A DNA stretch of 24,981 bases from a bacterium (GTDB taxonomy: Bacteria > Moduliflexota > Moduliflexia > Moduliflexales > JAUQPW01): the NCBI GenBank assembly GCA_030550175.1, contig JAUQPW010000089.1, positions 1-24,981 of the forward strand, in the 5' to 3' direction. The translations under genes were made by a program, and so were the position numbers. Within the stretch, counting starts at the first letter, position 1, and each line of letters opens with the position of its first letter. Below the pieces are notes generated by a model. It saw only the letters and a list, made by a program, of their open reading frames with translations. It was not told where the DNA came from and made no database searches. Positions 1-24,981 of this stretch are shown one piece after another.

Positions 1-70
1 ACCCCCCCACTCCCATACTCCCCCACTCCCATACTCCCCCACCCCCATACCTCCACACTCCCATACCCTC
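1..70. repeat. Pyrimidine-strand tandem-octamer repeat (ACTCCCAT/ACTCCCCC units), cut by the window edge. Same family as 7029-7121 and 13838-13896.
   Basis: Direct reading shows imperfect tandem units cactccca, tactcccc, cactccca, tactcccc, cacactccca. It lies immediately downstream of the minus-strand receiver gene stop at 74-76. The same motif recurs twice elsewhere in the window. Confidence 0.7.
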
Positions 71-500: not shown

Positions 501-3500
501 CTAGTACTCTCGGTTATACATCTTGCCGATGAGGGCAGGTACATCCAAAATCAGAATCACCCGTCCGTCTCCAAGTTTGGAAGCACTGGAAACAATATCT
601 GTTTTGACAATCTTAGTATCCAAGGATTTAATAACCAATTCTTCTTTTTCTAAGGGTTGGTCCGTGACAATCCCTACTAATTCATCTCGTGCAACCCGTA
701 CCACCACTACAAATAACTTCTCATTCTGGATTTTAGGTTGAGGAACTCCCAAAATATCGTAAGGTCTCAGGAGGTGAATGACCTGACCTCTGAGTTGAAA
801 AACCTCCTGTTTTCCTATGATCTCGATGTTCTTTGTTGAAATTCTCAAGACTTCTACCACGAGAGATAAAGGAATGGCAAAAACGCGGTTCCCGATTTCC
901 AGCAGAAGGGCTTGAATAATGGCTAAAGTTAAAGGGAGTTTAACGATAAATCGGGTTCCTTTATTCAGTTGGCTTTCTACTTCTAAGGTACCATTAAGCT
1001 CTTCGATGACCTTACGAGCACTCTGGATTCCCGGACCAAACAAAAAGGAGCTTTCCTCACTTTCAGGAACGACTAATCCCCGATTAAAGAATACATTGAA
1101 AAAGTCAGAAATGGAGAGGTTTTCAGCTTCCTCGGGAGTGAAAAATTTATGTTGGATCGCTAAATTTTTCACCCGTACCAGGTCAGTTCCTCTCCCATCA
1201 TCGGAAATTTCGATAATAATTTGATTGCCGGCATGGTAAGAGTTGAGACTTACTCTACCTGTGGTCGGTTTACCCAGTTGGGCCCGTACAGAGGGAGGTT
1301 CGATTCCATATTCTATAACGCTTCGAAGAAGTTTTGTTAAAGGCTCCCCAATCAGATCCAGAATAGCTTTATCCAGTTCGGTGTGTTCTCCGGTTATTTC
1401 CAACTTCACTTCTTTACCTTTTTTTAGAGCCAGATCTCTAACCAGTCGAGGAAATCGTTTGAATACTACATCGATCGGCATCATGCGAACCTTCATGATA
1501 TTTTCTTGTAAGTTCAACAAATTTTTTCGAACCAACATGTTCGTCTTCATAAGCTGCTCGATCAAACGGGCTGTTTCTCCGGTAGGAAAAATAGAATTTA
1601 ACTTACTTAAACCCTGGGAAAGGGTCGCTCCTCCGATAACCAGTTCCCCAACCACATTCATGATTTCATCCAGCAGTTGATAATCTACACGTAAGGTTTT
1701 TTTAGCCGACGGTGTAGAAGTAAGGGGAGTATAGGAAGAGATTTCGAACTCCTCATCTACAGAATAGGAGGGCACAGGCTCAGAACCCGGTGAAAGGACT
1801 TCTACCCTACGGGTTTCGGATAAGGGGGGAAGTACAAAGGGAGATATACGAACAGCTTGAACAACTGCGGCTACTTTTCCCCGACGTTGGATCAACTCTT
1901 CAGATGCACTACTGGCCAGGATGAGTTGGAAGTGATTTGCTCTTTTTAATTCATTGCTCCCTAAAGGTGGGTTCACTTTGATAACCTCCCCCAGCCGGGA
2001 GAGCTTTCGAGTTACCATAAAAGCACCTGCAGAGTGCAGGGACCAATCGGGTGCAAATTCTATTTCTATTCGGAATACTTTTTTTCCTTTTTCTTGAGCT
2101 TCCTTGAGTTTTACTTCTTCATATCTAATCAGTTCAATACCTTCTTCCTGTTGATGAACCAGAGAGACGGCTGTTTCGGTTAAGGACCCTGTCACCAGTT
2201 GATTAATTTTTGTTAAAAGTGGCGTTAGATCCAGGGGGCTGGTTCCATCTGTTTTATAGTCATTGACCAATCTCCGAAGAGTATCCAGGCAATTAAAAAG
2301 AACGGTAATCGAACCCTGGGTAATAATTCCGTCAGATTTCTGAACGGCCTTAAGGGTCTCTTCCATATGGCGACTCAGGGAATTAATCTTTTCAAATCCG
2401 AGAAATCCCGAATTGCCTTTTAACGTGTGGAAGGCCGTTATAACATTTCTTAGAATATTTCGATCTCCAGGGGCTTTCTCAAGGGCCAGGATTCCTTTCT
2501 CCAGACCTTCCAGGATATCACCGGCCTCCTCGAAGAAAATTTCCAAAAATTCTTCATTTTCTTCTTCCTCCGCAACCCCCCCTTCACGGGTTATGAGAAC
2601 CAGCGAAGGATCTACAGCCTCCAACCATTCCGTTGTATACAATCTCTTTTCCCTAGGCATGGTGGAGATGATCCCGTTTTGAAACAGGAGCTCTCGAAAG
2701 GAAAGAAGCCCTATTTTAAAGAGGTTATCCATCTTCATGGAGTATTTATTGAGGGCCAGAATTTTCTCCAGCTCGATTTTATCAGCAGAAAGGGGCTCCG
2801 ATAAAATTGTGGCCGCTTCTTCTGGATTCTCGTTAATGAAATCTGTTGCCTTTTTAAAGGCCCGGATCAGAGCTTTAAGCGTGTCGGGATGTTGTTGAAG
2901 ATTCTCGTTCAAAACCATGAGAACACTCTGATCTACCAACCAGTTAATCTCTTCCTCATAGCCCGGTATGGCTGAACGGGAACCGGAGAAATAAAATTTA
3001 CCTCCTATGGCCTGGGCCCGGCTAGTCCAGGGTTCCCAACACGCTATCCCATCGACCTCTCCCCGTTGTAGCGCTTCTAACTGTTGAGCGGGAAGCAGGT
3101 CTACAAAGGTAACCCGCGTCAGATCTACTCCAAACTCCCGGGCCATACTCTGAAGGGCAATATAAACCGCGGCCCCTTTCGCCATTCCTATTTTCTTTCC
3201 CTCTAAATCCCTGGGAGTTACAATTCCAGAATCCTCCCGAATCACAACTTGCTGAGTTCCAGAAATATCTGCCAGAGGGGCCACAATTTTAACATCCAGG
3301 CCTCGATCCTGAAGAATGAGCGTGGTAACCGGAGTCTGGGTAAAGGCAAAAGGCTTCTCTTTGGCCTGAATCACTTCATCCGGCATTATGGTTCCAGAGG
3401 GAAGAAGTCGATATTCTACTTGTAGGCCTTCTTCATCAAAAAATCCCTTTTCTTTAGCTAATATCAACTGACTTGAAATGTTTGGATCTTTAACGCCATA

Positions 3501-3533
3501 AAGCTCGATTCTATCCACAACCCCATCCTCCAT
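501..3533 (-). CDS. cheA: CheA-family chemotaxis histidine kinase (1010 aa): N-terminal NMT1/SsuA-like substrate-binding domain, HPt (P1), dimerisation (P3), HATPase (P4) and C-terminal CheW-like (P5) domain
   Basis: The ATG start at 3531-3533 was verified. The N-terminal ~300 aa (VKIVAPLADISGTQQVVIRED...GKKIGMAKGAAVYIALQ...GEVDGIACWEPW) resemble ABC-type nitrate/sulfonate/bicarbonate periplasmic-binding (NMT1/SsuA) folds but have no signal peptide or TM segment. The HPt motif is ITAFHTLKGNSGFLGF, the dimerisation region is DYQLLDEIMNVVGELVI, the ATPase motifs are IEISDDGRGTD and GPGIQSARKVIEELNGTLEVESQLNKGTRF, and the CheW-like tail is RVFAIPLSLVVEVLRI...VVVVRVARDELVGIVTDQ. Confidence 0.85.
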   Translation of the reverse strand: MEDGVVDRIELYGVKDPNISSQLILAKEKGFFDEEGLQVEYRLLPSGTIMPDEVIQAKEKPFAFTQTPVTTLILQDRGLDVKIVAPLADISGTQQVVIREDSGIVTPRDLEGKKIGMAKGAAVYIALQSMAREFGVDLTRVTFVDLLPAQQLEALQRGEVDGIACWEPWTSRAQAIGGKFYFSGSRSAIPGYEEEINWLVDQSVLMVLNENLQQHPDTLKALIRAFKKATDFINENPEEAATILSEPLSADKIELEKILALNKYSMKMDNLFKIGLLSFRELLFQNGIISTMPREKRLYTTEWLEAVDPSLVLITREGGVAEEEENEEFLEIFFEEAGDILEGLEKGILALEKAPGDRNILRNVITAFHTLKGNSGFLGFEKINSLSRHMEETLKAVQKSDGIITQGSITVLFNCLDTLRRLVNDYKTDGTSPLDLTPLLTKINQLVTGSLTETAVSLVHQQEEGIELIRYEEVKLKEAQEKGKKVFRIEIEFAPDWSLHSAGAFMVTRKLSRLGEVIKVNPPLGSNELKRANHFQLILASSASEELIQRRGKVAAVVQAVRISPFVLPPLSETRRVEVLSPGSEPVPSYSVDEEFEISSYTPLTSTPSAKKTLRVDYQLLDEIMNVVGELVIGGATLSQGLSKLNSIFPTGETARLIEQLMKTNMLVRKNLLNLQENIMKVRMMPIDVVFKRFPRLVRDLALKKGKEVKLEITGEHTELDKAILDLIGEPLTKLLRSVIEYGIEPPSVRAQLGKPTTGRVSLNSYHAGNQIIIEISDDGRGTDLVRVKNLAIQHKFFTPEEAENLSISDFFNVFFNRGLVVPESEESSFLFGPGIQSARKVIEELNGTLEVESQLNKGTRFIVKLPLTLAIIQALLLEIGNRVFAIPLSLVVEVLRISTKNIEIIGKQEVFQLRGQVIHLLRPYDILGVPQPKIQNEKLFVVVVRVARDELVGIVTDQPLEKEELVIKSLDTKIVKTDIVSSASKLGDGRVILILDVPALIGKMYNREY

Positions 3534-5222: not shown

Positions 5223-7028
5223 ATGAGTTACCGTCGGTATTTTATAGTTTATTATCTGGTTAGTTTCCTGTCTTTTTTCCCCCTACAAAGTGCCGCTCAG
5301 GAGGATGATGGGGAGGTGGTTGTTAATTTTAAAGACAACCTTCCCCAGGAAGAGATTGAGAAAATTGCCCACAAGTATGGAATTCAGTTAACCTATAACA
5401 GCATTTTCTCAAAGCCGGAAGCCCTTACCCGATTTTCAAAGGCAGGGATGGATCCTGACACGCTTCAGAAACTCCTGCAAGCTTTAGCTGCAGAGTCTAC
5501 CGTTGAATATGTAGAACCTAATTATCTTTATCAAGCTTTTGAAATTCCCAATGATCCACTTTTTGATAAACAATGGAACATGAAGTTCATTCAGATGCCG
5601 GAAGCCTGGGATAAAACCCATGGAAAAGGGGTTATCGTGGCCGTTATCGATACGGGAGTTGCCTATGAAGATTATCAAGACAGAAAAGGTGTTTACCACC
5701 GGGTCCAAGATCTGGCAAACACTCAATTTACGGAAGGTTATGATTTTATCGATGATGATACCCATCCCAACGATGATAACGGTCATGGAACCCATGTAGC
5801 CGGAACCATTGCCCAGTCAACCAATAATGGGATTGGGGTGGCAGGAATAGCCTATGAAGCTACCATCATGCCGTTAAAAGTTTTGAACCGGTTTGGGTTC
5901 GGGAATATAGCCGATATTGCTGAAGCTATCCGATATGCAGCGGACCATGGTGTACAGGTTATCAATCTAAGTTTAGGGGGCTTTTTTCCCAGCAGAACTA
6001 TTCAAGAAGCCATGGCCTATGCCCATGATAAAGGCGTGACCCTGGTGTGTGCAGCCGGGAATTCAGGTCGTAGAGGTGTGAGTTTTCCGGCTTCCGATCC
6101 TCATTGTATAGGCATCTCTGCCCTGGGGCCGGATGGAACCCTGGCTCCCTATTCCAGTTACGGTCCGGAGATCGACCTGGCTGCACCGGGCGGAGATACC
6201 AGTAAGGGCATCGGTTATGGAATCCTTCAAAATACTATTGGATACATGGATCCAACCCGGGATGGTTATGAATATTTCCAGGGGACTTCCATGGCGGCAC
6301 CCCACGTGGCGGGTACGGCGGCTCTGATCATCTCCCTGGGGGTGAAAAATCCCGATGAAGTAGAGAAAATCCTCAAAGCCAGTGCAACCCGGCGGACCCA
6401 ACAAGGGGAGTCCCTTTCGAACACTATTACAGGAGAAAACCGGGATGAGAAATACGGCGCCGGACTCCTCAATGCAGCCGCTGCCGTCTCTTCCCTCCGA
6501 CCCGATATCTTTGTTCCGCAAACGGCGATCATACCCGTCAGATTAAAATATCTCCTGGTGGCGATCTTATTAGCCTGGATCTATTTTAAATTCCTTAGAG
6601 GTTTTCACCTGCCCAAGGGGCTTCCCAGACTTCTTTTCTGGCTTGGGTTCCTGTGGGCTTCCTCGGGACTTTTTTTCCTGAATTTTTTCCCCTTCCCCGA
6701 CCTATTAAGCAAGGGTATAACCCCCTTTGTCCAAGCTTTTCCAGATTTAGATTATCCTCTGTTGGGGAGGATTTCGGATTTAAACCCCTTGTTCCATAGC
6801 GCGGTCCTTCCCCTTCTTTTGATCATAACCTTGTTAAGTACAAAATCTCTCAGCCGTTTTGCCCTGGGCTTTACCCTGGGTCTGGCCGCTCATCTAGTGG
6901 TAGATGTTCTTCTAACTTCGGCAACGGTTGCTTATATTCCCGGAAATTTCCTGCTGGATAAAACCTGGCTTTTAGTGAATGCCCTTTTTTCCTTTTGGTT
7001 AGCTTACCTTGCGGGAAAACCCTCGTAG
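5223..7028 (+). CDS. Secreted S8 subtilisin-family serine protease with I9 propeptide, fused to a C-terminal ~5-helix integral-membrane domain
   Basis: The signal peptide is MSYRRYFIVYYLVSFLSFFPLQSAAQ. The catalytic triad motifs are VAVIDTGV (Asp), HGTHVAGTIA (His), NSGRRG (oxyanion region) and GTSMAAPHVAGTAALI (Ser). The C-terminal ~170 aa hold five hydrophobic stretches (YLLVAILLAWIYFKFL, LLFWLGFLWASSGLFFLNFF, VLPLLLIITLLS, FALGFTLGLAAHLVVDVLL, WLLVNALFSFWLAYLAG). Confidence 0.85.
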   Translation: MSYRRYFIVYYLVSFLSFFPLQSAAQEDDGEVVVNFKDNLPQEEIEKIAHKYGIQLTYNSIFSKPEALTRFSKAGMDPDTLQKLLQALAAESTVEYVEPNYLYQAFEIPNDPLFDKQWNMKFIQMPEAWDKTHGKGVIVAVIDTGVAYEDYQDRKGVYHRVQDLANTQFTEGYDFIDDDTHPNDDNGHGTHVAGTIAQSTNNGIGVAGIAYEATIMPLKVLNRFGFGNIADIAEAIRYAADHGVQVINLSLGGFFPSRTIQEAMAYAHDKGVTLVCAAGNSGRRGVSFPASDPHCIGISALGPDGTLAPYSSYGPEIDLAAPGGDTSKGIGYGILQNTIGYMDPTRDGYEYFQGTSMAAPHVAGTAALIISLGVKNPDEVEKILKASATRRTQQGESLSNTITGENRDEKYGAGLLNAAAAVSSLRPDIFVPQTAIIPVRLKYLLVAILLAWIYFKFLRGFHLPKGLPRLLFWLGFLWASSGLFFLNFFPFPDLLSKGITPFVQAFPDLDYPLLGRISDLNPLFHSAVLPLLLIITLLSTKSLSRFALGFTLGLAAHLVVDVLLTSATVAYIPGNFLLDKTWLLVNALFSFWLAYLAGKPS

Positions 7029-7121
7029 GAGGGCGGGAGGGTGGGAGTATGGGGGTGTGGGAGTATGGTGGGGAAATTCTCCCACACTTCCACACTCCCA
7101 TACTCCCACCCTCCCACACTT
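7029..7121. repeat. Inverted pair of the ACTCCCA-octamer repeat family forming a long imperfect hairpin. G-rich arm 7029-7073, 7-nt loop AAATTCT, C-rich arm 7081-7121. Probable terminator-type REP-like element downstream of the subtilase gene.
   Basis: The reverse complement of the 7081-7117 arm (GTGGGAGGGTGGGAGTATGGGAGTGTGG...) matches 7031-7052 (GCGGGAGGGTGGGAGTATGGG...) with few mismatches. The same repeat unit occurs at 1-70 and 13838-13896. Confidence 0.75.
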
Positions 7122-7131
7122 CTTTCTTAGA

Positions 7132-7940: not shown

Positions 7941-9512
7941 TTAATCTCCCAGGACGATCTGAACGGTGCTTTTCTTTCGTCGCAATAGAAAAAGGAAGGG
8001 AAAGGTAATTATGATCAGAATTGCAATGAGCAGAAAGGCGTCTCGAAAGGAGAGGAGTAAAGCCTGTCGGGTTACGGTATGATCTAAGAGGTTCAGAGCG
8101 ATCTTACCCGAGGATTCTGGATTAATGCCTTTGGCCAGAAGTCCCTGTTCCAGTATTTGCAATCGTTGGGTAGTTAAAGGATTTAGAGGGTGGAGGTGTT
8201 CACTGAGGATGGATCGGTGAAAAATTTCCCTTTGTTTGAGAAAGGTGACGAGAATTGCGATCCCGAAACTCCCGCCGGTCTGGCGCATGAAGGTGTAAAT
8301 GCCTGAGGCACTGGCCATGTCTTTCTTTTCCAGGGTACTGAGGGCTGCTATACTCAGGGGAACAAACATAAAGCCGACTCCAATTCCTCGTAGGATCTGA
8401 GGAACGATCAGATCAGAGGTACCAATTTCCAGGGTAAACCGGGACATTTTGTAGAGACCCAGGCTAAAGGTACCTATACCCATGGCAATGACATATTGCG
8501 GAGAAATTCTGGCCATCAGTTTACCCGAAATAAACATGGCAATAGCGGTAGAGATGGAGCTGAGGAGGATCGCCTTTCCGGTCTGCCAGGCCGTGTAATT
8601 TAACAGGGTTTGTAAAAAAACCGGAAGCAGAAAGGTAGGTCCCATGAGTCCGACTCCTAAAAAGGTAGCGATCACAGTTCCGACCCAAAGAGAACGGTTG
8701 GTCAAAACCTTCAAGTTGACCGCAGGATGATCAATTCGAAGTTCCCACCAGACAAAGCTGATTAAAGCCAGCCCGGCTAAGAGGCTAAGTGTTTTAATTC
8801 CATTGGATTCGAACCAGTCTTTCCGTTCCCCCAGTTCCAGGATCACCTGCATACATCCAACGCCTATAGCCAGTAAAATAATCCCCAGGTAGTCTACCTG
8901 GGGAGCCGGGTTTTTAGAGTGGGTAGAGTCTTGTAGAAAGAAATAGGCCAGCAGCAGGGCAAGGCCCCCGACGGGGATGTTGATATAAAAGATCCAGGGC
9001 CAATTATAGTTATCGGTAATCCAACCTCCTAAGGTTGGTCCCAACGTGGGACCGACCATGGTGCCTACTCCAAAAGCCGCCATAGCTCCCCCCTGTTCTT
9101 TAGGTGGAAAGGTTTCCATGAGAAGGGATTGGGAACTGGGAATAAGGGCCCCTCCTCCCATTCCTTGAATGATTCGGAAGAAAACGAGGGCTTCGACACT
9201 CCAGGCAATTCCACAAAAAAAAGAGGCAACGGTAAAGATTCCAATGGATAATGCTAAAAATCTTTTTCGTCCTAACCAGGCCGTAAACCACCCTGTTAAA
9301 GGAAGGACGATGACATTGGCAATAATGTAACCTGTAACCACCCAGTTGATTTCGTCCAGAGTCGCTCCCAGATTACCCATCATATGGGGTAATGCTACAT
9401 TTACGATGCTCACATCGATAGCTTGCAGGAGGGTTCCCAAAACGGCTATCAAGATGATAATCCATTTGTGCTGAGGTTTCACAGGAGATGAAAGGCAAAA
9501 ATCAAAAGGCAA
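7941..9512 (-). CDS. emrB: DHA2-family MFS multidrug efflux transporter (EmrB/QacA type, 14-TMS class)
   Basis: Motifs IDVSIVNVALPHMMGNLGA, GRKRFLALSIGIFTVASFFCG and IIQGMGGGALIPSSQSLL are present with many TM helices, and the gene sits immediately downstream of an HlyD/EmrA gene. The ORF-track start at 9512 is TTG; an in-frame GTG at 9480-9482 is an alternative start. Neither has an SD. Confidence 0.85.
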   Translation of the reverse strand: MPFDFCLSSPVKPQHKWIIILIAVLGTLLQAIDVSIVNVALPHMMGNLGATLDEINWVVTGYIIANVIVLPLTGWFTAWLGRKRFLALSIGIFTVASFFCGIAWSVEALVFFRIIQGMGGGALIPSSQSLLMETFPPKEQGGAMAAFGVGTMVGPTLGPTLGGWITDNYNWPWIFYINIPVGGLALLLAYFFLQDSTHSKNPAPQVDYLGIILLAIGVGCMQVILELGERKDWFESNGIKTLSLLAGLALISFVWWELRIDHPAVNLKVLTNRSLWVGTVIATFLGVGLMGPTFLLPVFLQTLLNYTAWQTGKAILLSSISTAIAMFISGKLMARISPQYVIAMGIGTFSLGLYKMSRFTLEIGTSDLIVPQILRGIGVGFMFVPLSIAALSTLEKKDMASASGIYTFMRQTGGSFGIAILVTFLKQREIFHRSILSEHLHPLNPLTTQRLQILEQGLLAKGINPESSGKIALNLLDHTVTRQALLLSFRDAFLLIAILIIITFPFLFLLRRKKSTVQIVLGD

Positions 9513-9561
9513 AAGGCGAAAGGGCAGATGAAAGCTTTCTTTTACCTTTCGCCTTTTGCCT
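9507..9561. repeat. Perfect 17-bp-stem hairpin (arms 9507-9523 and 9545-9561, 21-nt loop) built from tandem CAAAAGG units, lying exactly at the emrA stop / emrB start junction
   Basis: Upstream tandem copies aaaggcaaaaatcaaaaggcaaaaggcgaaagg are followed by the inverted copy cctttcgccttttgcc. The left arm contains the emrB TTG at 9510-9512, and the right arm ends 2 nt before the emrA stop codon at 9564-9566. Confidence 0.7.
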
Positions 9562-9563
9562 GT

Positions 9564-10892
9564 TTACTTTGCACGGGCACCGCTGATATCGATGGTTACA
9601 AATACAGACATCCCGGGTCGGATGGGATATTCGGGATCTCCCTCGATGGTGATTCGCACGGGGACCCGTTGAACAACCTTAGTAAAGTTACCGGTGGCAT
9701 TATCGGGAGGTAGAAGGGAAAATTTCGCACCGGTTGCAGGGCTGATACTTTCTACTTTTCCTTTAAATACCTTTCCGGGATAGGTATCCACCGTAAATTC
9801 CACCGGCTGACCAACACGGACATACTCCAGTTGGGTTTCCTTCAAATTTGCAACAATCCAGACCTCATCGGGAATCAGGGCCATTATAGGCTGACCTACA
9901 TTGACCCTTTCTCCGACTTCCACCGATCTCTTCCCGATAATCCCATCTACCGGGGCTCTAATTTCCGTGTAGGAGAATCTGAGCAGAGCTGCAGCCAGAT
10001 TCGCTTCGGCCTGGGCCAACTCGGCTTCCAAAGATTTGACTTCCTGACCTTTCATTTCCGTCTCGGTATGACCCGTTTGGGCCAGAACTATCTGGGCTTC
10101 GGTCTGTTTAATCTGGTTTTTAAGAGACTCAATCTTTGCTGCAGCGACCCGTTGAGAAGCCAGGGAGGCTTCATAATTAGACCGGGCTACATTATAGTCT
10201 GAGATCGCTGCATCGAGTTGTTGCTGAGGAATGACGCCTTTAGCCTGGAGTTGCTCTAACCGCTTTCGATCCAGTTCCGCTTTTTCCATTTGAGCTTTAT
10301 ACCCTAGGGTTTCTTTCTCTATACGAGCTAACTCCGCTTGAGCCGTTGCAAGACTTTTTCTCATGGCTTCTGCTTGTGCCCTGGCCTCTGTGATTTTTGC
10401 ATCTGTACGATTTTGCTCAAGGGGTACTGACAGACGCGCAGATGCTAATTTGGCTTTGATAACCTCAACGGCTGCCTTCGCTTGATCTACTTCAATAGCT
10501 AAAGGTTTGGTGTTCAATTGTACAAGCAATTGATCCGCTTTGACACGCTGGTTTACATCCACCAAAACCCGCTCTACAACCCCGGCAGTCCTGGGACTGA
10601 TGGTGATTATTCGACCCTCTACCTGGGCGTTATCAGTAGTTTCATGATTTAAGTAAAAGTAGTAAAGCTTAACCCCATAAGCTACCCCGATAATAAGCAA
10701 AATAAGTACAAGTCCGTAAAGGACCATACGTTTAACGTTTTTTGTAAAAGAAATCTTCCGTTTGATAAGGGGTTGCGAAATCGGATAGTTTAAATTTCCA
10801 TTAGGCCCAGGTAAGGTACGGGGGGGTTCTTTTTCTTCGATTTTATAACTCTTTTCGGGATCGTTAGCGGATATTGTGTCGTCGTCATTCAT
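9564..10892 (-). CDS. emrA: HlyD-family membrane fusion protein (EmrA-like periplasmic adaptor) with N-terminal TM anchor
   Basis: The ATG at 10890-10892 was verified. The TM anchor is MVLYGLVLILLIIGVAYGV, the lipoyl/biotinyl-like region is AQVEGRIITISPRTAGVVERVLVDVNQRVKADQLLVQLN, a long coiled coil follows, and the C-terminal beta domain is VPVRITIE. Confidence 0.85.
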   Translation of the reverse strand: MNDDDTISANDPEKSYKIEEKEPPRTLPGPNGNLNYPISQPLIKRKISFTKNVKRMVLYGLVLILLIIGVAYGVKLYYFYLNHETTDNAQVEGRIITISPRTAGVVERVLVDVNQRVKADQLLVQLNTKPLAIEVDQAKAAVEVIKAKLASARLSVPLEQNRTDAKITEARAQAEAMRKSLATAQAELARIEKETLGYKAQMEKAELDRKRLEQLQAKGVIPQQQLDAAISDYNVARSNYEASLASQRVAAAKIESLKNQIKQTEAQIVLAQTGHTETEMKGQEVKSLEAELAQAEANLAAALLRFSYTEIRAPVDGIIGKRSVEVGERVNVGQPIMALIPDEVWIVANLKETQLEYVRVGQPVEFTVDTYPGKVFKGKVESISPATGAKFSLLPPDNATGNFTKVVQRVPVRITIEGDPEYPIRPGMSVFVTIDISGARAK

Positions 10893-10903
10893 ATCCTAAA
10901 ACA

Positions 10904-10979
10904 TAAAACCTAAAACCTAAAACGTAAAGAGTTAAACCTTACCTCCATTTAATTTTTACATTTTAGGTTTTAGGTTTTA
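10904..10979. repeat. 25-bp inverted repeat with 1 mismatch (arms 10904-10928 and 10955-10979, 26-nt loop) made of tandem CTAAAAC heptamers. It lies between the L,D-transpeptidase stop and the emrA start.
   Basis: taaaacctaaaacctaaaacgtaaa ... tttacattttaggttttaggtttta. The right arm overlaps the transpeptidase stop codon at 10977-10979. The left arm begins 11 nt from the emrA ATG. Confidence 0.75.
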
Positions 10980-11909
10980 TCTCAAGATTTCTTCCAGGAA
11001 AATAGAATAATGAAGCTGCTCCTTCTCTTTATCTAAGAGGAGCCGTTTAGCAGGAGGTCGACTGAGTTTTTTTCGAATGTATTGCTCGATCGACTGGAAC
11101 TGAGCTTCTGCAGTATCAATATACCATTTCAGCCGAGAGAAGTCTATCCTCCTTAAATCAATACGCTGCTGTTGCAAGATTTTTAAAACCTCATCAAAAT
11201 AATCCAATGGTTTATGGTAAATGTTTGCATGGAGGACCAACTCTTCCCGCGGTTCGTTATACTCAACGATTTCATAGCGGATTGAAATGGGCACAGCACG
11301 AGGGAATCTACCGGATCTGATCTCAGGTGCCAGGTAATCATATAAAATCTGCATATCTTCCCTATCGATTCGAATACAACCATTAGAACTGGGAGCCCCG
11401 ACGGTATACCAGTCGGTCGTCTGATGAAGTACAAACTGCTCATAGACTTCCTGGGTCTCGTCACTGAGAATAGACATGAATATCGACTTCATATCCTTCG
11501 GCATGGGAATCTTGATGGGTTTAAGGGTTTTTTTATCAAAGGTGTAAGAGTACTCAATTACCTTTCCAACCAGGTCTTCCGGATTTTGATCCCCATACCG
11601 AAAAACAACTCCGGTTGCCTTGGCATAAAGATATCCTTCCCCGGTTGGAGTCTGGTTAGAAAATTCCGTTCCCCTTCCAACCCCAATAGGAATAGTTAAG
11701 GTTCGCCAGGAATCGCCTCCATCCGGTATATAAAGAACCAGCCGATAAGCCGGAATGTTAATAACCACCTGCTGATTGAAGTTTTTTCCGGAGTTTTCAT
11801 ACGGAAAATCTTCAAGTTTACTGTAAACTACATTGGGAGAAAAAAGATAAATTAAAAAACTTAAGATTAAAAATTGCTTGAACCTCTTCTTTATTTTGCC
11901 TGTTTCCAT
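10977..11909 (-). CDS. Secreted L,D-transpeptidase (YkuD/ErfK domain) family protein
   Basis: The signal peptide is METGKIKKRFKQFLILSFLIYLFSPNVVYS. The catalytic motif HQTTDWYTVGAPSSNGCIRIDREDM matches the H...S-x-G-C-I-R signature of L,D-transpeptidases. The ATG start was verified. Confidence 0.7.
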   Translation of the reverse strand: METGKIKKRFKQFLILSFLIYLFSPNVVYSKLEDFPYENSGKNFNQQVVINIPAYRLVLYIPDGGDSWRTLTIPIGVGRGTEFSNQTPTGEGYLYAKATGVVFRYGDQNPEDLVGKVIEYSYTFDKKTLKPIKIPMPKDMKSIFMSILSDETQEVYEQFVLHQTTDWYTVGAPSSNGCIRIDREDMQILYDYLAPEIRSGRFPRAVPISIRYEIVEYNEPREELVLHANIYHKPLDYFDEVLKILQQQRIDLRRIDFSRLKWYIDTAEAQFQSIEQYIRKKLSRPPAKRLLLDKEKEQLHYSIFLEEILR

Positions 11910-12586
11910 AGGCTACAAAAAATATCAACACAATAGGCCACACTCTACAGCTACACAGCCTATCCTAAACCCGGAGATTCCATAGGGAGGAACTTCTCTT
12001 TTAATCCCAGGGTCTTCTACAGGCTCTGTAGCTAAATCAAACCCATTTTTACAAAAACGTATCTATATCCATTTAGTAGGTGGAAGAAGAGACATCCCGC
12101 CGGTCCTCATACGCGCCAGAATAAGGATGTTAGCCCCAGCGGGGCGACCTGTTTAACTGTTCACCCCTGAGGAGCTTTTCAGCTTAACCCGGTGCGTATC
12201 TCCTGGCCCCTTTGAGGGGGATGGGAGTGTTCAGACAAAAAAGTAACACCTACTAACTTGTTACAGTTACTACAAAAATAAAACACCTTGACTTCTCAAT
12301 AAGATGCTGCTAGCCTGATTGGCTAGGGTAAAAAACTACATTAATAAATTAATTCTTTTTTCTAAAAACGTTCAATCTATCCTTATGAAAATTCTTGTCG
12401 TCTGTGGGAGTGTAGATAAAGCCCTTTACCCCAGATCATCAAAGAAAAGTACGGAATCACGTGTAGGAAGGGAAACTTTACCAAAAATTATGGGATCCAA
12501 TCCGCTTTTCCTTGACAAGAAGAGAGATTGTTAAATTTTATAGCTGAGGGGGTTAAAGTGGAATATTTTTTAACAAATCGGGAAAG

Positions 12587-13789: not shown

Positions 13790-13837
13790 GAGTAAAAAAA
13801 GAGAATAGAAGTGTGGAAAAGTAGGCGAACTAAGGGG

Positions 13838-13896
13838 TCCTCCTCTTCTTCCCCATACTCCCACACTCCCACACTTCCCCACTCCCATCTTTCCTT
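13838..13896. repeat. Third copy of the ACTCCCA-octamer pyrimidine-strand repeat, between the convergent C11-peptidase and encapsulin genes
   Basis: tcctcctcttcttccccatactcccacactcccacacttccccactcccatctttcc contains the same ATACTCCCACACTCCC units as 1-70 and 7081-7121. Confidence 0.7.
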
Positions 13897-13899
13897 ACT

Positions 13900-14709
13900 T
13901 CAGGCAGAAATAATACAAATAGCCTCTGGAGTTCTGATATCCGGGACCAGACTTTCAGAGATAGTAAATTCATAAAAAACCTCTCCAAATCCGGAGAATG
14001 AGGTCATCAGATCCTGACCCAGAATAATCTGGTTACCGTTAACTGTATCTAAAAGTACTCCTTTGTTTTGAAGCACAGGAGTTTTAAAAATCCCTTCTGT
14101 AACCAGAGAACGTAGGTTTTCGATTTGGAGAACATCGCTGTCTTTATACAATCGAAACAGGCTGTTATAAAGAGGTGAAGCCAGAACCAGGGCATAGGGT
14201 CCCGGATATCCTGCTTTATCCAGTTGATTGGCAGCTTGAATCACATCTTCAATGGCTTGACCTACCTGACTCCAATCCCCTAACGGGATCTTATGGACAC
14301 CGGGTGTGTTAAGAATACCCGTAATAGAGAGGCTTTCGTAACCGAAAAATACCAGCTCATCCTCTTTAAGGATACAGTTTTTAGCGGCCTGAAATGCTGC
14401 ATCCAGGTCTAGAGGTTGGTGATAAGTTTCGTAAGCCTCAATCATGCTGATACTTAAAGAAAAGGAACTATAGATCTGGGGTATAGGAAGGGTAGGACTA
14501 CAGAGAATTTTAGCTGCTAGGGGGAGCCCTGCTTCTGCTATCCGCTCTGTTTTCGAAACGAGGGCCTTAAAACCAAGCCCGAGGGGGCCCTCTACATCCA
14601 GTAATTTTCTCCCCACCAATAAACTTTTCGCCGTGGAAACAACCAGTTCATCAATTTTCTCCCAAACCTTTGAGCTAATTGGGGCAGCTTCTCGATTGAG
14701 ATATTTCAT
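13900..14709 (-). CDS. Family-1 encapsulin nanocompartment shell protein (HK97 fold; linocin M18/CFP29-like)
   Basis: The length, the N-terminus MKYLNREAAPISSKVWEKIDE...GRKLLDVEGP and the internal ILGQDLMTSF parallel Thermotoga maritima encapsulin ([21 protein letters not shown]...GRKFVDVEGP...ILGQDLSIGY). An AAGGAG SD lies 11 nt upstream and overlaps the stop of the preceding ferritin-like gene. Confidence 0.85.
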   Translation of the reverse strand: MKYLNREAAPISSKVWEKIDELVVSTAKSLLVGRKLLDVEGPLGLGFKALVSKTERIAEAGLPLAAKILCSPTLPIPQIYSSFSLSISMIEAYETYHQPLDLDAAFQAAKNCILKEDELVFFGYESLSITGILNTPGVHKIPLGDWSQVGQAIEDVIQAANQLDKAGYPGPYALVLASPLYNSLFRLYKDSDVLQIENLRSLVTEGIFKTPVLQNKGVLLDTVNGNQIILGQDLMTSFSGFGEVFYEFTISESLVPDIRTPEAICIISA

Positions 14710-14714
14710 AACAA

Positions 14715-15104
14715 TTAACTCTCCTTTCTCTGCTTTAAGCTTCCGACGGTTTTAAGAATAGAAGTTCGAACGTTCTCTGAGGATGGTCCGGGTTTACTGT
14801 TCTTCATTTCTAGGGTCTCTATTTGTGTAATTTCTCTTTCACTAAAGAGATAGGTCCGCAAATGTCCTTCAAAAGTCGGATTATTTCGTCGAATCCACTC
14901 CAGGACCATGGCAGCGTGTTCCATTTCTTCATCTCGATTATGAGCCAGAATTCTTCTCAGTTCTTCATCTGTACATACATCTACCCGCTGTTGGTACCAA
15001 TCAATAGCTTCTAACTCCTCTATAAGAGACTTAATCGCTCTGGACATATTCAGAGTTTTCTCACTGATTTTTTCATAAGGTTCATGCCAACTTTCCGATC
15101 CCAT
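14715..15104 (-). CDS. Encapsulated ferritin-like protein (EncFtn/Flp cargo) with C-terminal cargo-loading peptide
   Basis: The ferritin-like di-iron motifs are EELEAIDWYQQRVDVCTDEELRRILAHNRDEEMEHAAMVLEWIRR (E...E..H pattern). The C-terminal tail ...SILKTVGSLKQRKES contains the TVGSLK-type encapsulin targeting consensus. The gene is immediately upstream of, and translationally coupled to, the shell gene. The ATG and an AGGAGA SD were verified. Confidence 0.85.
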   Translation of the reverse strand: MGSESWHEPYEKISEKTLNMSRAIKSLIEELEAIDWYQQRVDVCTDEELRRILAHNRDEEMEHAAMVLEWIRRNNPTFEGHLRTYLFSEREITQIETLEMKNSKPGPSSENVRTSILKTVGSLKQRKES

Positions 15105-16768: not shown

Positions 16769-16840
16769 CCTCTTTCATAGATCTAAAATCCAAGGTCCAG
16801 AGCTCTGATGGCTCTGGATTCTGGACTTTAGACTTTGAGA

Positions 16841-17620: not shown

Positions 17621-17645
17621 TATCCCTAAGTCTAAAGTCCCAGGT

Positions 17646-17686
17646 CCAAAGTCCCAAGATCGGAGACTTTGGGCTTGGGACTTTGG
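17646..17686. terminator. 13-bp-stem hairpin (17646-17658 / 17674-17686) built from tandem GTCCCA(A/G)G units, 5 nt downstream of the argG stop. Putative terminator or REP-like element.
   Basis: ccaaagtcccaag atcggagactttggg cttgggactttgg. The flanking sequence agtcccaggtccaaagtcccaag is itself a tandem repeat. There is no clean U-run, so intrinsic-terminator function is uncertain. Confidence 0.4.
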
Positions 17687-17691
17687 GCTGG

Positions 17692-24451: not shown

Positions 24452-24964
24452 CTACGAATGTTCGGAAAATAACTCTTCTAAAACCGAGCGAAAGGTTTCA
24501 AAGGCAGGAGTATCCCAGAGACAAAATACTACGTTCTCTAATCCTGTGTTCCCTTGAAGATATTCTCGGGTCGTGGTAAGCATAATTCGAGCACACCGGT
24601 CCATGGGAAAACCAAAAACTCCGGTACTAATGGCCGGAAAGGCTATGCTTTTGAGTTGATGCTGATCGGCTAACTTCAAGCTGTTTAAAGTAGCTTGCCG
24701 AAGTTTATCGTCCTCATTCCCTTCTCCCCATTGAGGACCTACCGCGTGGATAACATATTTGGCGGGAAGATTCCCTCCCGTTGTAATAACCGCTCCTCCC
24801 ACGTGGGTACCTCCGATTCGGTTGCATTCCTCCTGGATACGAGGTCCACCTTTCTTCCTTATCGCTCCGGCTACTCCAGACCCGAGAATCAGGGCGGTAT
24901 TAGCCGCGTTGACAATGGCATCGGTCGCCAACTCGGTTATATCCCCGCCTCCTGATCGCCGCAC
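24452..24964 (-). CDS. Macro domain protein (MacroD/YmdB-type O-acetyl-ADP-ribose deacetylase / ADP-ribose hydrolase); start possibly beyond the window edge
   Basis: GDITELATDAIVNAANTAL...GVAGAI...GGAVITTGGNLPAKYVIHAVGPQWGEG...IAFPAISTGVFGFP aligns block by block with E. coli YmdB (GDITKLAVDVIVNAANPSL...GVDGAI...HAVITLAGDLPAKAVVHTVGPVW...VAFPAISTGVYGYP). The annotated start at 24964 is GTG, and the reading frame stays open to the window end. Confidence 0.85.
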   Translation of the reverse strand: MRRSGGGDITELATDAIVNAANTALILGSGVAGAIRKKGGPRIQEECNRIGGTHVGGAVITTGGNLPAKYVIHAVGPQWGEGNEDDKLRQATLNSLKLADQHQLKSIAFPAISTGVFGFPMDRCARIMLTTTREYLQGNTGLENVVFCLWDTPAFETFRSVLEELFSEHS

Positions 24965-24981
24965 GGGACGGCGAACAGGTG

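Follow-up and report, generated by a model that had tools for sequence, protein, structure and literature searches.

Tandem-repeat hairpins resembling cyanobacterial STRR elements at the ykuD-emrA-emrB junctions and other gene 3′ ends of an uncultivated bacterium

We describe tandem-repeat hairpins in a 24,981-nt stretch of DNA (hereafter the window) from a bacterium assigned to the Moduliflexota (NCBI GenBank assembly GCA_030550175.1, contig JAUQPW010000089.1, positions 1 to 24,981 of the forward strand), whose host lineage is uncultivated and non-cyanobacterial. Three co-directional genes on the minus strand encode, in order of transcription, a YkuD-type L,D-transpeptidase (ykuD, 10977-11909, 310 aa), an emrA-like membrane-fusion protein of the HlyD family (emrA, 9564-10892, 442 aa) and an emrB-like transporter of the major facilitator superfamily (MFS; emrB, 7941-9482, 513 aa). 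We refer to the hairpin between ykuD and emrA as J1 and to that between emrA and emrB as J2. An initial annotation made from the sequence had proposed two hairpins with tandem-heptamer arms here, and folding bears out both of them where they had been placed. When mRNA-sense folding energies were compared with those of 200 dinucleotide-preserving shuffles, J1 (10903-10980, minus strand) folded at -38.7 kcal/mol (z = -7.3) and J2 (9507-9561, minus strand) at -37.3 kcal/mol (z = -4.2), and 0 of 200 shuffles folded as well in either case. For comparison we used syntenic loci from relatives, grouped by EmrA identity to the window at 96% (L081 and L167/L168), 91% (L169/L170 and L083/L084) and 77% (L085/L086).

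The two arms of J1 (10903-10935 and 10948-10980) are 33 nt each and 88% complementary. On the mRNA, the 5′ arm (10948-10980) carries AAAACCU units and the 3′ arm (10903-10935) GUUUUAG units, and pairing proceeds through a core of 20 perfect pairs, then a C/T position that becomes a G·U pair in the mRNA, then further pairs. Tandem Repeats Finder (TRF) reported CCTAAAA in 4.9 copies at 10895-10928 and TTTTAGG in 2.7 copies at 10961-10979; the former is, on the mRNA (minus) strand, a (TTTTAGG)n array that ends 2 nt before the emrA ATG (10892). The ykuD stop codon (10977-10979) lies inside the 5′ arm as its first triplet and the perfect part of the helix stops 11 nt from the emrA ATG, both as the initial annotation had it, while the extended helix reaches 10893, the base before the AUG. 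The stem is followed by GUUUUAGG, with 4 U in the 8 nt after it. The 12-nt loop contains GGAGG, which we considered as a hidden Shine-Dalgarno (SD) sequence and rejected: it is not followed by a start codon, nor is it conserved, the L081 loop having TTTGAGGT at this place. We also set aside a mini-open reading frame in the 3′ arm (AUG-UUU-UAG, with its AUG at 10902-10904), whose UAG ends 3 nt before the emrA AUG, giving a start-to-start distance of 12 nt; the mini-frame is probably fortuitous, and its AUG reads AAG in the 91% relatives.

J2 has a perfect 17-bp stem (9507-9523 paired with 9545-9561), as first described, closed by a loop of 21 nt (9524-9544). Its units are GGCAAAA/GGCGAAA in the 9545-9561 arm and CCUUUCG/CCUUUUG in the 9507-9523 arm, and TRF detected AAAGGCA in 4.7 copies, with period 7 at 9491-9523. 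The stem had been said to span the emrA stop codon, but that codon (9564-9566) lies 2 nt outside it. The stem is followed by UUUGAUUUUU, and the pyrimidine-rich tail that leads up to emrB (UUUGAUUUUUGCCUUUCAUCUCCU, 9483-9506, minus strand) consists of further degenerate copies of the heptamer and resembles a terminator's U tract. The first 8 nt 3′ of the stem (UUUGAUUU) include 6 U.

The initial annotation had set both hairpins on translation start regions, with a TTG inside the J2 stem as a candidate start of emrB. A TTG is indeed present in the stem (9512), but the comparative evidence identifies the conserved emrB start as GTG 9482 (9482-9480), 24 nt downstream of the J2 stem, and the gene model is corrected accordingly. 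This GTG and its context (CTGTGAAAC) are present in all 96% and 91% relatives. In the latter, 14 nt (two heptamers) are missing from the stretch that separates the stem from this GTG, an indel that breaks the frame. Because of this indel the stretch is non-coding, and together with the conserved GTG context it rules out TTG 9512 as the start. A 513-aa product, equivalent to a start at GTG 9482, was returned by the gene caller in five of the six relative loci and in the same-strain contigs; in the P0001 lineage, where L167 and L168 have the same junction sequence, the calls were 503 aa and 523 aa, respectively. Placement on a start region thus holds for emrA, where the helix runs to 10893, and fails for emrB. 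A usable SD is missing before both starts, as had been noted, but this is not distinctive because the lack is common among the genes of the window, about half of which have no SD and only about 6 of 18 a strong one. The predicted accessibility of the emrA leader (-20 to -1) is 0.15, the lowest of the 17 starts tested, and that of the emrB leader is 0.43, which is ordinary among them.

The use of different heptamers within one design had been considered unusual in itself. In the window it is not, since at least five further hairpins or arrays share the design, bringing to at least seven the number of elements whose arms are tandem repeats of 7-8 nt. Two of them lie, like J1 and J2, between co-directional genes on the minus strand. 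The HpcH|SDR hairpin (16779-16840; -32 kcal/mol, z = -5.1) is built of AAAGUCU/CCAGAAU-type heptamers and fills its spacer from 2 nt past the stop codon to about 15 nt before the SDR ATG (16768), and the ArgG|HpcH hairpin (17629-17689; z = -4.1) is built of CCCAAAGU / GGGACUUU units. The strongest fold belongs to a plus-strand hairpin of GGGAGTRT / AYACTCCC octamers that begins at the stop codon of an S8 peptidase gene (7027-7123; arms of 42 nt, -83.3 kcal/mol, z = -10.2). An octamer array (CCCACACT) in the convergent spacer between the C11 peptidase and encapsulin genes (13808-13887, no strand assigned) forms a partial hairpin (z = -3.0) and is followed by a T-run on the encapsulin-sense strand. 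Finally, an octamer array at the 3′ end of a response-regulator gene (1-68, minus strand), G-rich on the response-regulator sense strand, is truncated at the window edge; its counterparts in relatives form complete hairpins with T6-T7 behind them. Outside J1 and J2, TRF reported period 7 at 17623-17658 and period 8 at 1-68, 7028-7120 and 13852-13887.

As separate observations on the octamer arrays, the G-rich strand of all three (7027-7123, 13808-13887 and 1-68) matches the canonical G-quadruplex motif, so that hairpin and G-quadruplex folds could compete there. The gene bordering the second array belongs to an operon of encapsulin (Linocin_M18) and an EncFtn cargo gene (13900-15104, minus strand), and it is the 3′ end of this operon that bears the array and the T-run.

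These elements share a common architecture in which a stop codon is followed by a hairpin with tandem 7-8-mer arms and then by the next gene. Intergenic DNA makes up 10.8% of the window and holds eight of the 11 period-7/8 arrays (P = 2e-6). Seven of the 12 spacers that contain a gene 3′ end carry such an element, compared with none of the four divergent, promoter-type spacers; the occupied spacers are co-directional or convergent, and the hairpins start at about 0-4 nt from the stop codon. In all of them purines dominate the 5′ arm and pyrimidines the 3′ arm, as a palindrome will show whichever strand is read; a single long helix grown out of an A tract, a stem and a T tract would be expected to look like this. 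Searches with Rfam 15 gave no family match at gathering score anywhere in the window, and a scan for the sigma-70 promoter consensus gave no enrichment over shuffles.

Logan contigs from four metagenomic runs (SRR27730034, 36, 37 and 44) are 99.9-100% identical to the window. The nearest public relative, with 96% EmrA identity, is GCA_035559535.1, labelled 'Candidatus Limnocylindrales bacterium', and the best named matches to ArgG come from Tectomicrobia (78%), Latescibacteria (71-73%) and Chloroflexota (about 70%). Scans of the genomes of GTDB species representatives and of JGI metagenomes with EmrA found at most 41% identity over most of the protein, plus a few short C-terminal fragments at 48-68%, and yielded no extra orthologous junctions. 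A search with the proteins at the window edges added no sequence beyond the window, every same-strain contig stopping at the hairpin arrays. We also compared the emrA|emrB spacers of about 120 distant loci, which proved uninformative, the apparent gap being inflated by differences in EmrB N-terminal length and the folding energy by high G+C.

Whether hairpins persist in relatives, a check proposed in the initial annotation, has a different answer for each junction: J2 is found in all of them, but J1 is in some shortened, lost or split. J2 folds in every relative (z = -6.8, -6.1 and -2.4), and an alignment of six distinct sequences shows pairing in 98% of the cells of its 17 pairs, 13 of which are invariant. 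One pair shows a compensatory change, from G-C to A-U in L167, and in the 77% relative both arms are shifted toward GGCGAAA/CCTTTCG units, with one mismatch. The arms are identical at 34 of 34 positions to the 91% relative, compared with 61-66% identity at fourfold-degenerate sites of emrA and emrB, and at 30 of 34 positions to the 77% relative, compared with 44-46%. In a binomial test that takes the 34 positions as independent, P is about 2e-7 for both comparisons; with each of the 17 pairs counted once, the 91% comparison still gives P < 1e-3. Judged by these alignments, the J2 stem is conserved far above the neutral rate.

The J2 loop, in turn, evolves freely, and in the lineage of the window it is inverted. 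The window loop (9524-9544) matches the reverse complement of the L081 loop at 19 of 21 positions and the L081 loop read directly at only 9 of 21. All five other lineages carry the opposite orientation, and three independent same-strain assemblies confirm that of the window. This is a flip-flop of the kind known from the loops of plastid hairpins (PMC6342102), an organelle phenomenon in which inverted repeats of about 18 bp likewise enclose a short loop (of 5-9 bp, compared with 21 nt in J2) that close relatives carry in both orientations. In the literature that we searched we found no description of loop inversion in bacterial intercistronic hairpins. The relatives also show changes of the slippage type, namely one 14-nt and one 7-nt indel and an octamer copy number that varies widely between them.

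Comparison of the same loci indicates that J1 is more labile than J2. It is kept in the 96% relatives, with a 7-nt insertion in the loop, shortened in L169 (z = -3.7) and absent from L083 (z = +2.2), where similarity sets in at the loop and what lies upstream is unrelated, possibly because of a chimeric contig end. In the 77% relative the hairpin is split by a G+C-rich, structured insert of 125 nt. What J1 keeps best is its (TTTTAGG)n array before the emrA AUG; L083 has this array without a partner arm. The insert in the J1 loop (L085:890-1015, also in L086) folds at -52.9 kcal/mol and has a 46-aa open reading frame called across it; no other copies of it occur among the recovered loci.

At the S8 peptidase 3′ end, precisely where the window has its octamer hairpin, the 77% relative carries a G+C-rich hairpin of the ordinary kind with T5 behind it. 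We take this to suggest that a hairpin is needed there and that the repeat-built stem is a lineage-specific elaboration. Each S8 arm has a few octamers in the window; in L083 the number is many times higher. Independently of these comparisons, we noticed a dispersed sequence of about 45 nt (containing CCAGTTACTTTCTAAATGAAAAGACTTTTCAAGG) inside octamer arrays at two loci in the relatives, which is absent from the window. Its sites are L081:13853-13886, L083:4073-4106 and the response-regulator 3′ spacers of L081, L083 and L169. The insert recalls the small dispersed repeats that are nested in heptamer arrays of Nostoc.

In form, the hairpins of the window most closely resemble the short tandemly repeated repetitive (STRR) sequences of cyanobacteria, having head-to-tail units of about 7 nt, a concentration in intergenic DNA and inverted pairing (z from -3.0 to -10.2). 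The STRR hairpins between hupS and hupL of Nostoc, Anabaena and Lyngbya, for which roles in transcript stability or translational coupling have been proposed (PMC2670836), likewise consist of 7-bp inverted tandem units that form a hairpin in a short spacer, lie between co-transcribed genes for subunits of one complex and belong to genomes with many such arrays; stability, translational coupling and termination are the roles proposed for these elements. However, the present host is not a cyanobacterium and its window has no HIP1 sites, the canonical STRR1-3 units (CCCCAGT, TTGGTCA and CAACAGT) are absent from it as tandems, and octamers occur alongside heptamers. The window hairpins therefore resemble STRR sequences in form and are not members of the cyanobacterial family by unit or host. 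Tandem TAACTGA and GGGAATC units, which are known from the systems discussed next, were also sought in the window and not found.

Outside the cyanobacteria, a close parallel is in Xanthomonas, where 70-75 paired inverted arrays of the heptamer GGGAATC, capable of forming stem-loops, lie near stop codons (Rehm et al. 2015, PMC4692102). Like our elements, these arrays and the GGGGA(C/T)T repeats of Nostoc are intergenic, near or overlapping the upstream stop codon and mostly between co-directional genes, and their copy number varies at conserved positions among relatives; most are transcribed (PMC4692102). The G-rich octamers of the window match a G-quadruplex motif too. Xanthomonas has a single dominant unit throughout its genome; here the heptamer hairpins each use a separate unit, and the A/U-rich sequences of J1 and J2 are unable to fold as G-quadruplexes. 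The TAACTGA repeats of Beggiatoaceae and cyanobacteria also place a heptamer array just before a start codon, as (TTTTAGG)4 ends 2 nt before the emrA ATG. They are nearly always direct copies of one and the same unit, and among 170 sets a single case was inverted (MacGregor 2015, PMC4679880), whereas the present elements are mostly paired palindromes of varied units.

Functionally, the closest systems are internal terminators and the stem-loops of selective RNA processing and stabilisation (SRPS) (PMC9045158, PMC4423207, PMC8219983), in which a long stem-loop comes after the gene whose product must be made in excess; the stoichiometry of transporters is set by internal terminators whose stems are long and whose U tracts are weak (PMC9045158). 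The longer stem, the U tract weaker than in canonical terminators and the transporter operon setting are shared with J1 and J2. By contrast, those stem-loops have no tandem repeats, and their function has been measured, whereas here it is approached from sequence.

From this combination of anatomy, multiplicity and placement we conclude that J1 and J2 are very probably generic, STRR-like intergenic tandem-repeat hairpins and not a device specific to emrAB. An overall picture in which such hairpins act as internal terminators or attenuators, or as stabilisers of 3′ ends, is the one we favour, if with modest confidence; that termination or stabilisation is their main function we put forward as a tentative proposal. 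Transcripts would form long stem-loops after stop codons, followed by pyrimidine-rich tails, and the hairpins would act both as attenuators resembling intrinsic terminators, within operons or at their ends, and as protective structures at 3′ ends. Each downstream cistron would be lowered relative to its upstream neighbor, emrA relative to ykuD and emrB relative to emrA. Tripartite pumps need their membrane-fusion protein in excess over the MFS transporter, and a brake after emrA would fit such a pump. A secondary effect would be that J1 buries the emrA leader, which may make emrA depend on ribosomes that finish ykuD and, because the 5′ arm begins at its stop codon, would open the J1 helix. The repeat arms lengthen and shorten by slippage, and their complementarity is maintained.

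Several results weigh against this account. Classical intrinsic terminators have loops of 3-8 nt, shorter than the 12 nt of J1 and the 21 nt of J2, and the tails after J1 and the ArgG|HpcH hairpin are only weakly U-rich. Terminator-like sites are not enriched in the window (19, compared with 16.0 +/- 3.8 in shuffles), and a consensus terminator scan, which by design passes over J1 and J2 since it admits loops of 3-8 nt, had a hit in just one of the hairpins, at the inner stem of HpcH|SDR. The covariation in J2 is not significant, as its signal comes from one pair and 83 of 500 shuffles reach it, and the complementarity of the arms could be maintained without selection through template-switch correction of quasi-palindromes. 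Any genome-wide claim, moreover, rests on 25 kb and its syntenic relatives.

A rival view, which we consider doubtful, is that the hairpins are non-functional by-products. Slippage would amplify units in AT-rich spacers, template switching would copy one arm onto the other, and concerted evolution would keep the arms alike. Unit sequences that differ from locus to locus, a copy number that varies between close relatives and the lability of J1 would all follow, the single compensatory change in J2 is equally explicable by arm-to-arm copying, and the flipped loop is a signature of arm-to-arm recombination or template switching, as in plastid loops (PMC6342102). What such a process does not account for is the near-constancy of the J2 arms at distances where fourfold-degenerate sites are close to saturation, the restriction of the elements to spacers with a gene 3′ end at about 0-4 nt from the stop codon, and the ordinary hairpin that occupies the S8 position in the 77% relative.

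Structure-based regulation, as the initial annotation had suggested, remains plausible in general terms given the conservation of J2, its one compensatory pair change and the burial of the emrA leader by J1, but not as something particular to emrAB, as the same design recurs at unrelated junctions. In its specific form this explanation, which we judge unlikely, holds that the hairpins mask the initiation regions of emrA and emrB, with ribosome coupling from ykuD to emrA and from emrA to emrB, or serve as RNase sites. Much of the anatomy of J1 is what it would predict, with the ykuD stop codon in the 5′ arm, an extended helix up to the base before the emrA AUG and the least accessible leader of the 17 (0.15); neither start has an SD, the HpcH|SDR and ArgG|HpcH hairpins repeat the geometry of stop, hairpin and start, and coupling has been proposed for the hupS-hupL hairpin (PMC2670836). 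Yet about half of the genes in the window do without an SD, the emrB GTG lies 24 nt beyond the J2 stem behind a leader of ordinary accessibility (0.43), and hairpins also stand where no downstream start exists, in the C11 peptidase-encapsulin spacer and at the 3′ end of the response-regulator gene. J1 itself is lost in L083, where the heptamer array is kept, and split by the 125-nt insert in L085. Attenuation or termination fits these data better than start-codon masking does.

A broader and improbable idea is that the lineage has an active palindrome-building or homogenising process, which copies local 7-8-nt units from arm to arm at nearly every 3′ or intercistronic spacer and flips loops as a by-product. 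If so, the stems of terminators or attenuators would keep being rebuilt and tuned in their length, repeats of the STRR type would have a testable origin, and operon stoichiometry could be adjusted through repeat copy number.

Mobile or transposase-dependent elements, such as repetitive extragenic palindromic (REP) sequences, the REP doublets known as REPINs or the miniature inverted-repeat transposable elements called MITEs, are a very unlikely source of J1 and J2. Like our hairpins, the REP sequences, bacterial interspersed mosaic elements (BIMEs) and REPINs of enterobacteria and pseudomonads are extragenic palindromes in transcribed 3′ or intercistronic spacers; REP and BIME elements stabilise the upstream mRNA and, near a stop codon, affect translation. 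But REP sequences form one conserved family of about 20-40 nt spread by the REP-associated tyrosine transposase (RAYT), whereas J1 and J2 are unique, local tandem repeats. Their arms occur once each in the window, in relatives they are found only at the orthologous site, and their unit sequences appear nowhere else in the window or the loci. Both hairpins are at orthologous positions in all relatives, with no presence/absence pattern with target-site duplications, and Pfam scans of the 18 main open reading frames of the window found no transposase family, RAYT included. Hints of mobility come instead from the octamer family, which shares sequence across loci and hosts the dispersed 45-nt insert at two loci in relatives, from the 125-nt insert in the J1 loop of L085, and from the same-strain short-read assemblies (L001-L003, L174 and L175), which end at 7002-7072 and 10979, that is, at hairpins, as multi-copy sequence would cause.

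That J2 is a DNA inversion switch (inverton), in which an invertase flips the loop to vary emrB expression, is hardly credible: a segment between perfect 17-bp inverted repeats is indeed found in both orientations among lineages, but at 21 nt it is far too short for a promoter, its orientation is fixed within each lineage (one in the three same-strain assemblies, the opposite in all five others), and Pfam scans of the window's reading frames revealed no recombinase gene nearby.

STRR-like tandem-repeat hairpins are thereby documented outside cyanobacteria and Xanthomonas, in a poorly known uncultivated lineage, and what had appeared to be an efflux-specific riboregulator is removed from consideration. 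Because the same spacer can be traced at 96, 91 and 77% protein identity, the locus offers an unusually clean comparative series that includes stem conservation, compensatory change, copy-number slippage, loop inversion and the replacement of an ordinary terminator-like hairpin by one of octamer repeats. Should attenuation prove true, this would be a natural case of operon stoichiometry set by slippage-variable stems. A practical consequence is that tandem-repeat hairpins fragment short-read assemblies of the source organism.

Elsewhere in the window we made several observations unrelated to the hairpins. One concerns a segment of about 212 nt (12058-12271) that L081 lacks. Imperfect inverted repeats of 24 nt (12059-12082 and 12247-12270) border it, and the same-strain assemblies L001 and L002 break off within it, at 12156, so that it may be an element of the MITE type present in several copies. 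In the surrounding region (11910-12586) the window is without two genes, one of 153 aa and one of 316 aa with DUF1722/2-thiouracil-desulfurase domains, which lie between the C11 peptidase gene and ykuD in all relatives except the 77% pair. At the far end, the last 35 nt (24947-24981) do not align to the same-strain contigs L171 and L172, which are otherwise 100% identical up to 24946; the mismatch may be an assembly join or an edge variant, and the macro-domain gene has 187 aa in L171/L172, compared with a 170-aa open reading frame in the window. Finally, a CheA-type histidine kinase (501-3533, minus strand) with Hpt, P2, dimerisation, HATPase and CheW domains has an NMT1/THI5-like domain of the solute-binding type at its N-terminus, an architecture that seems unusual for CheA and is kept in all relatives.

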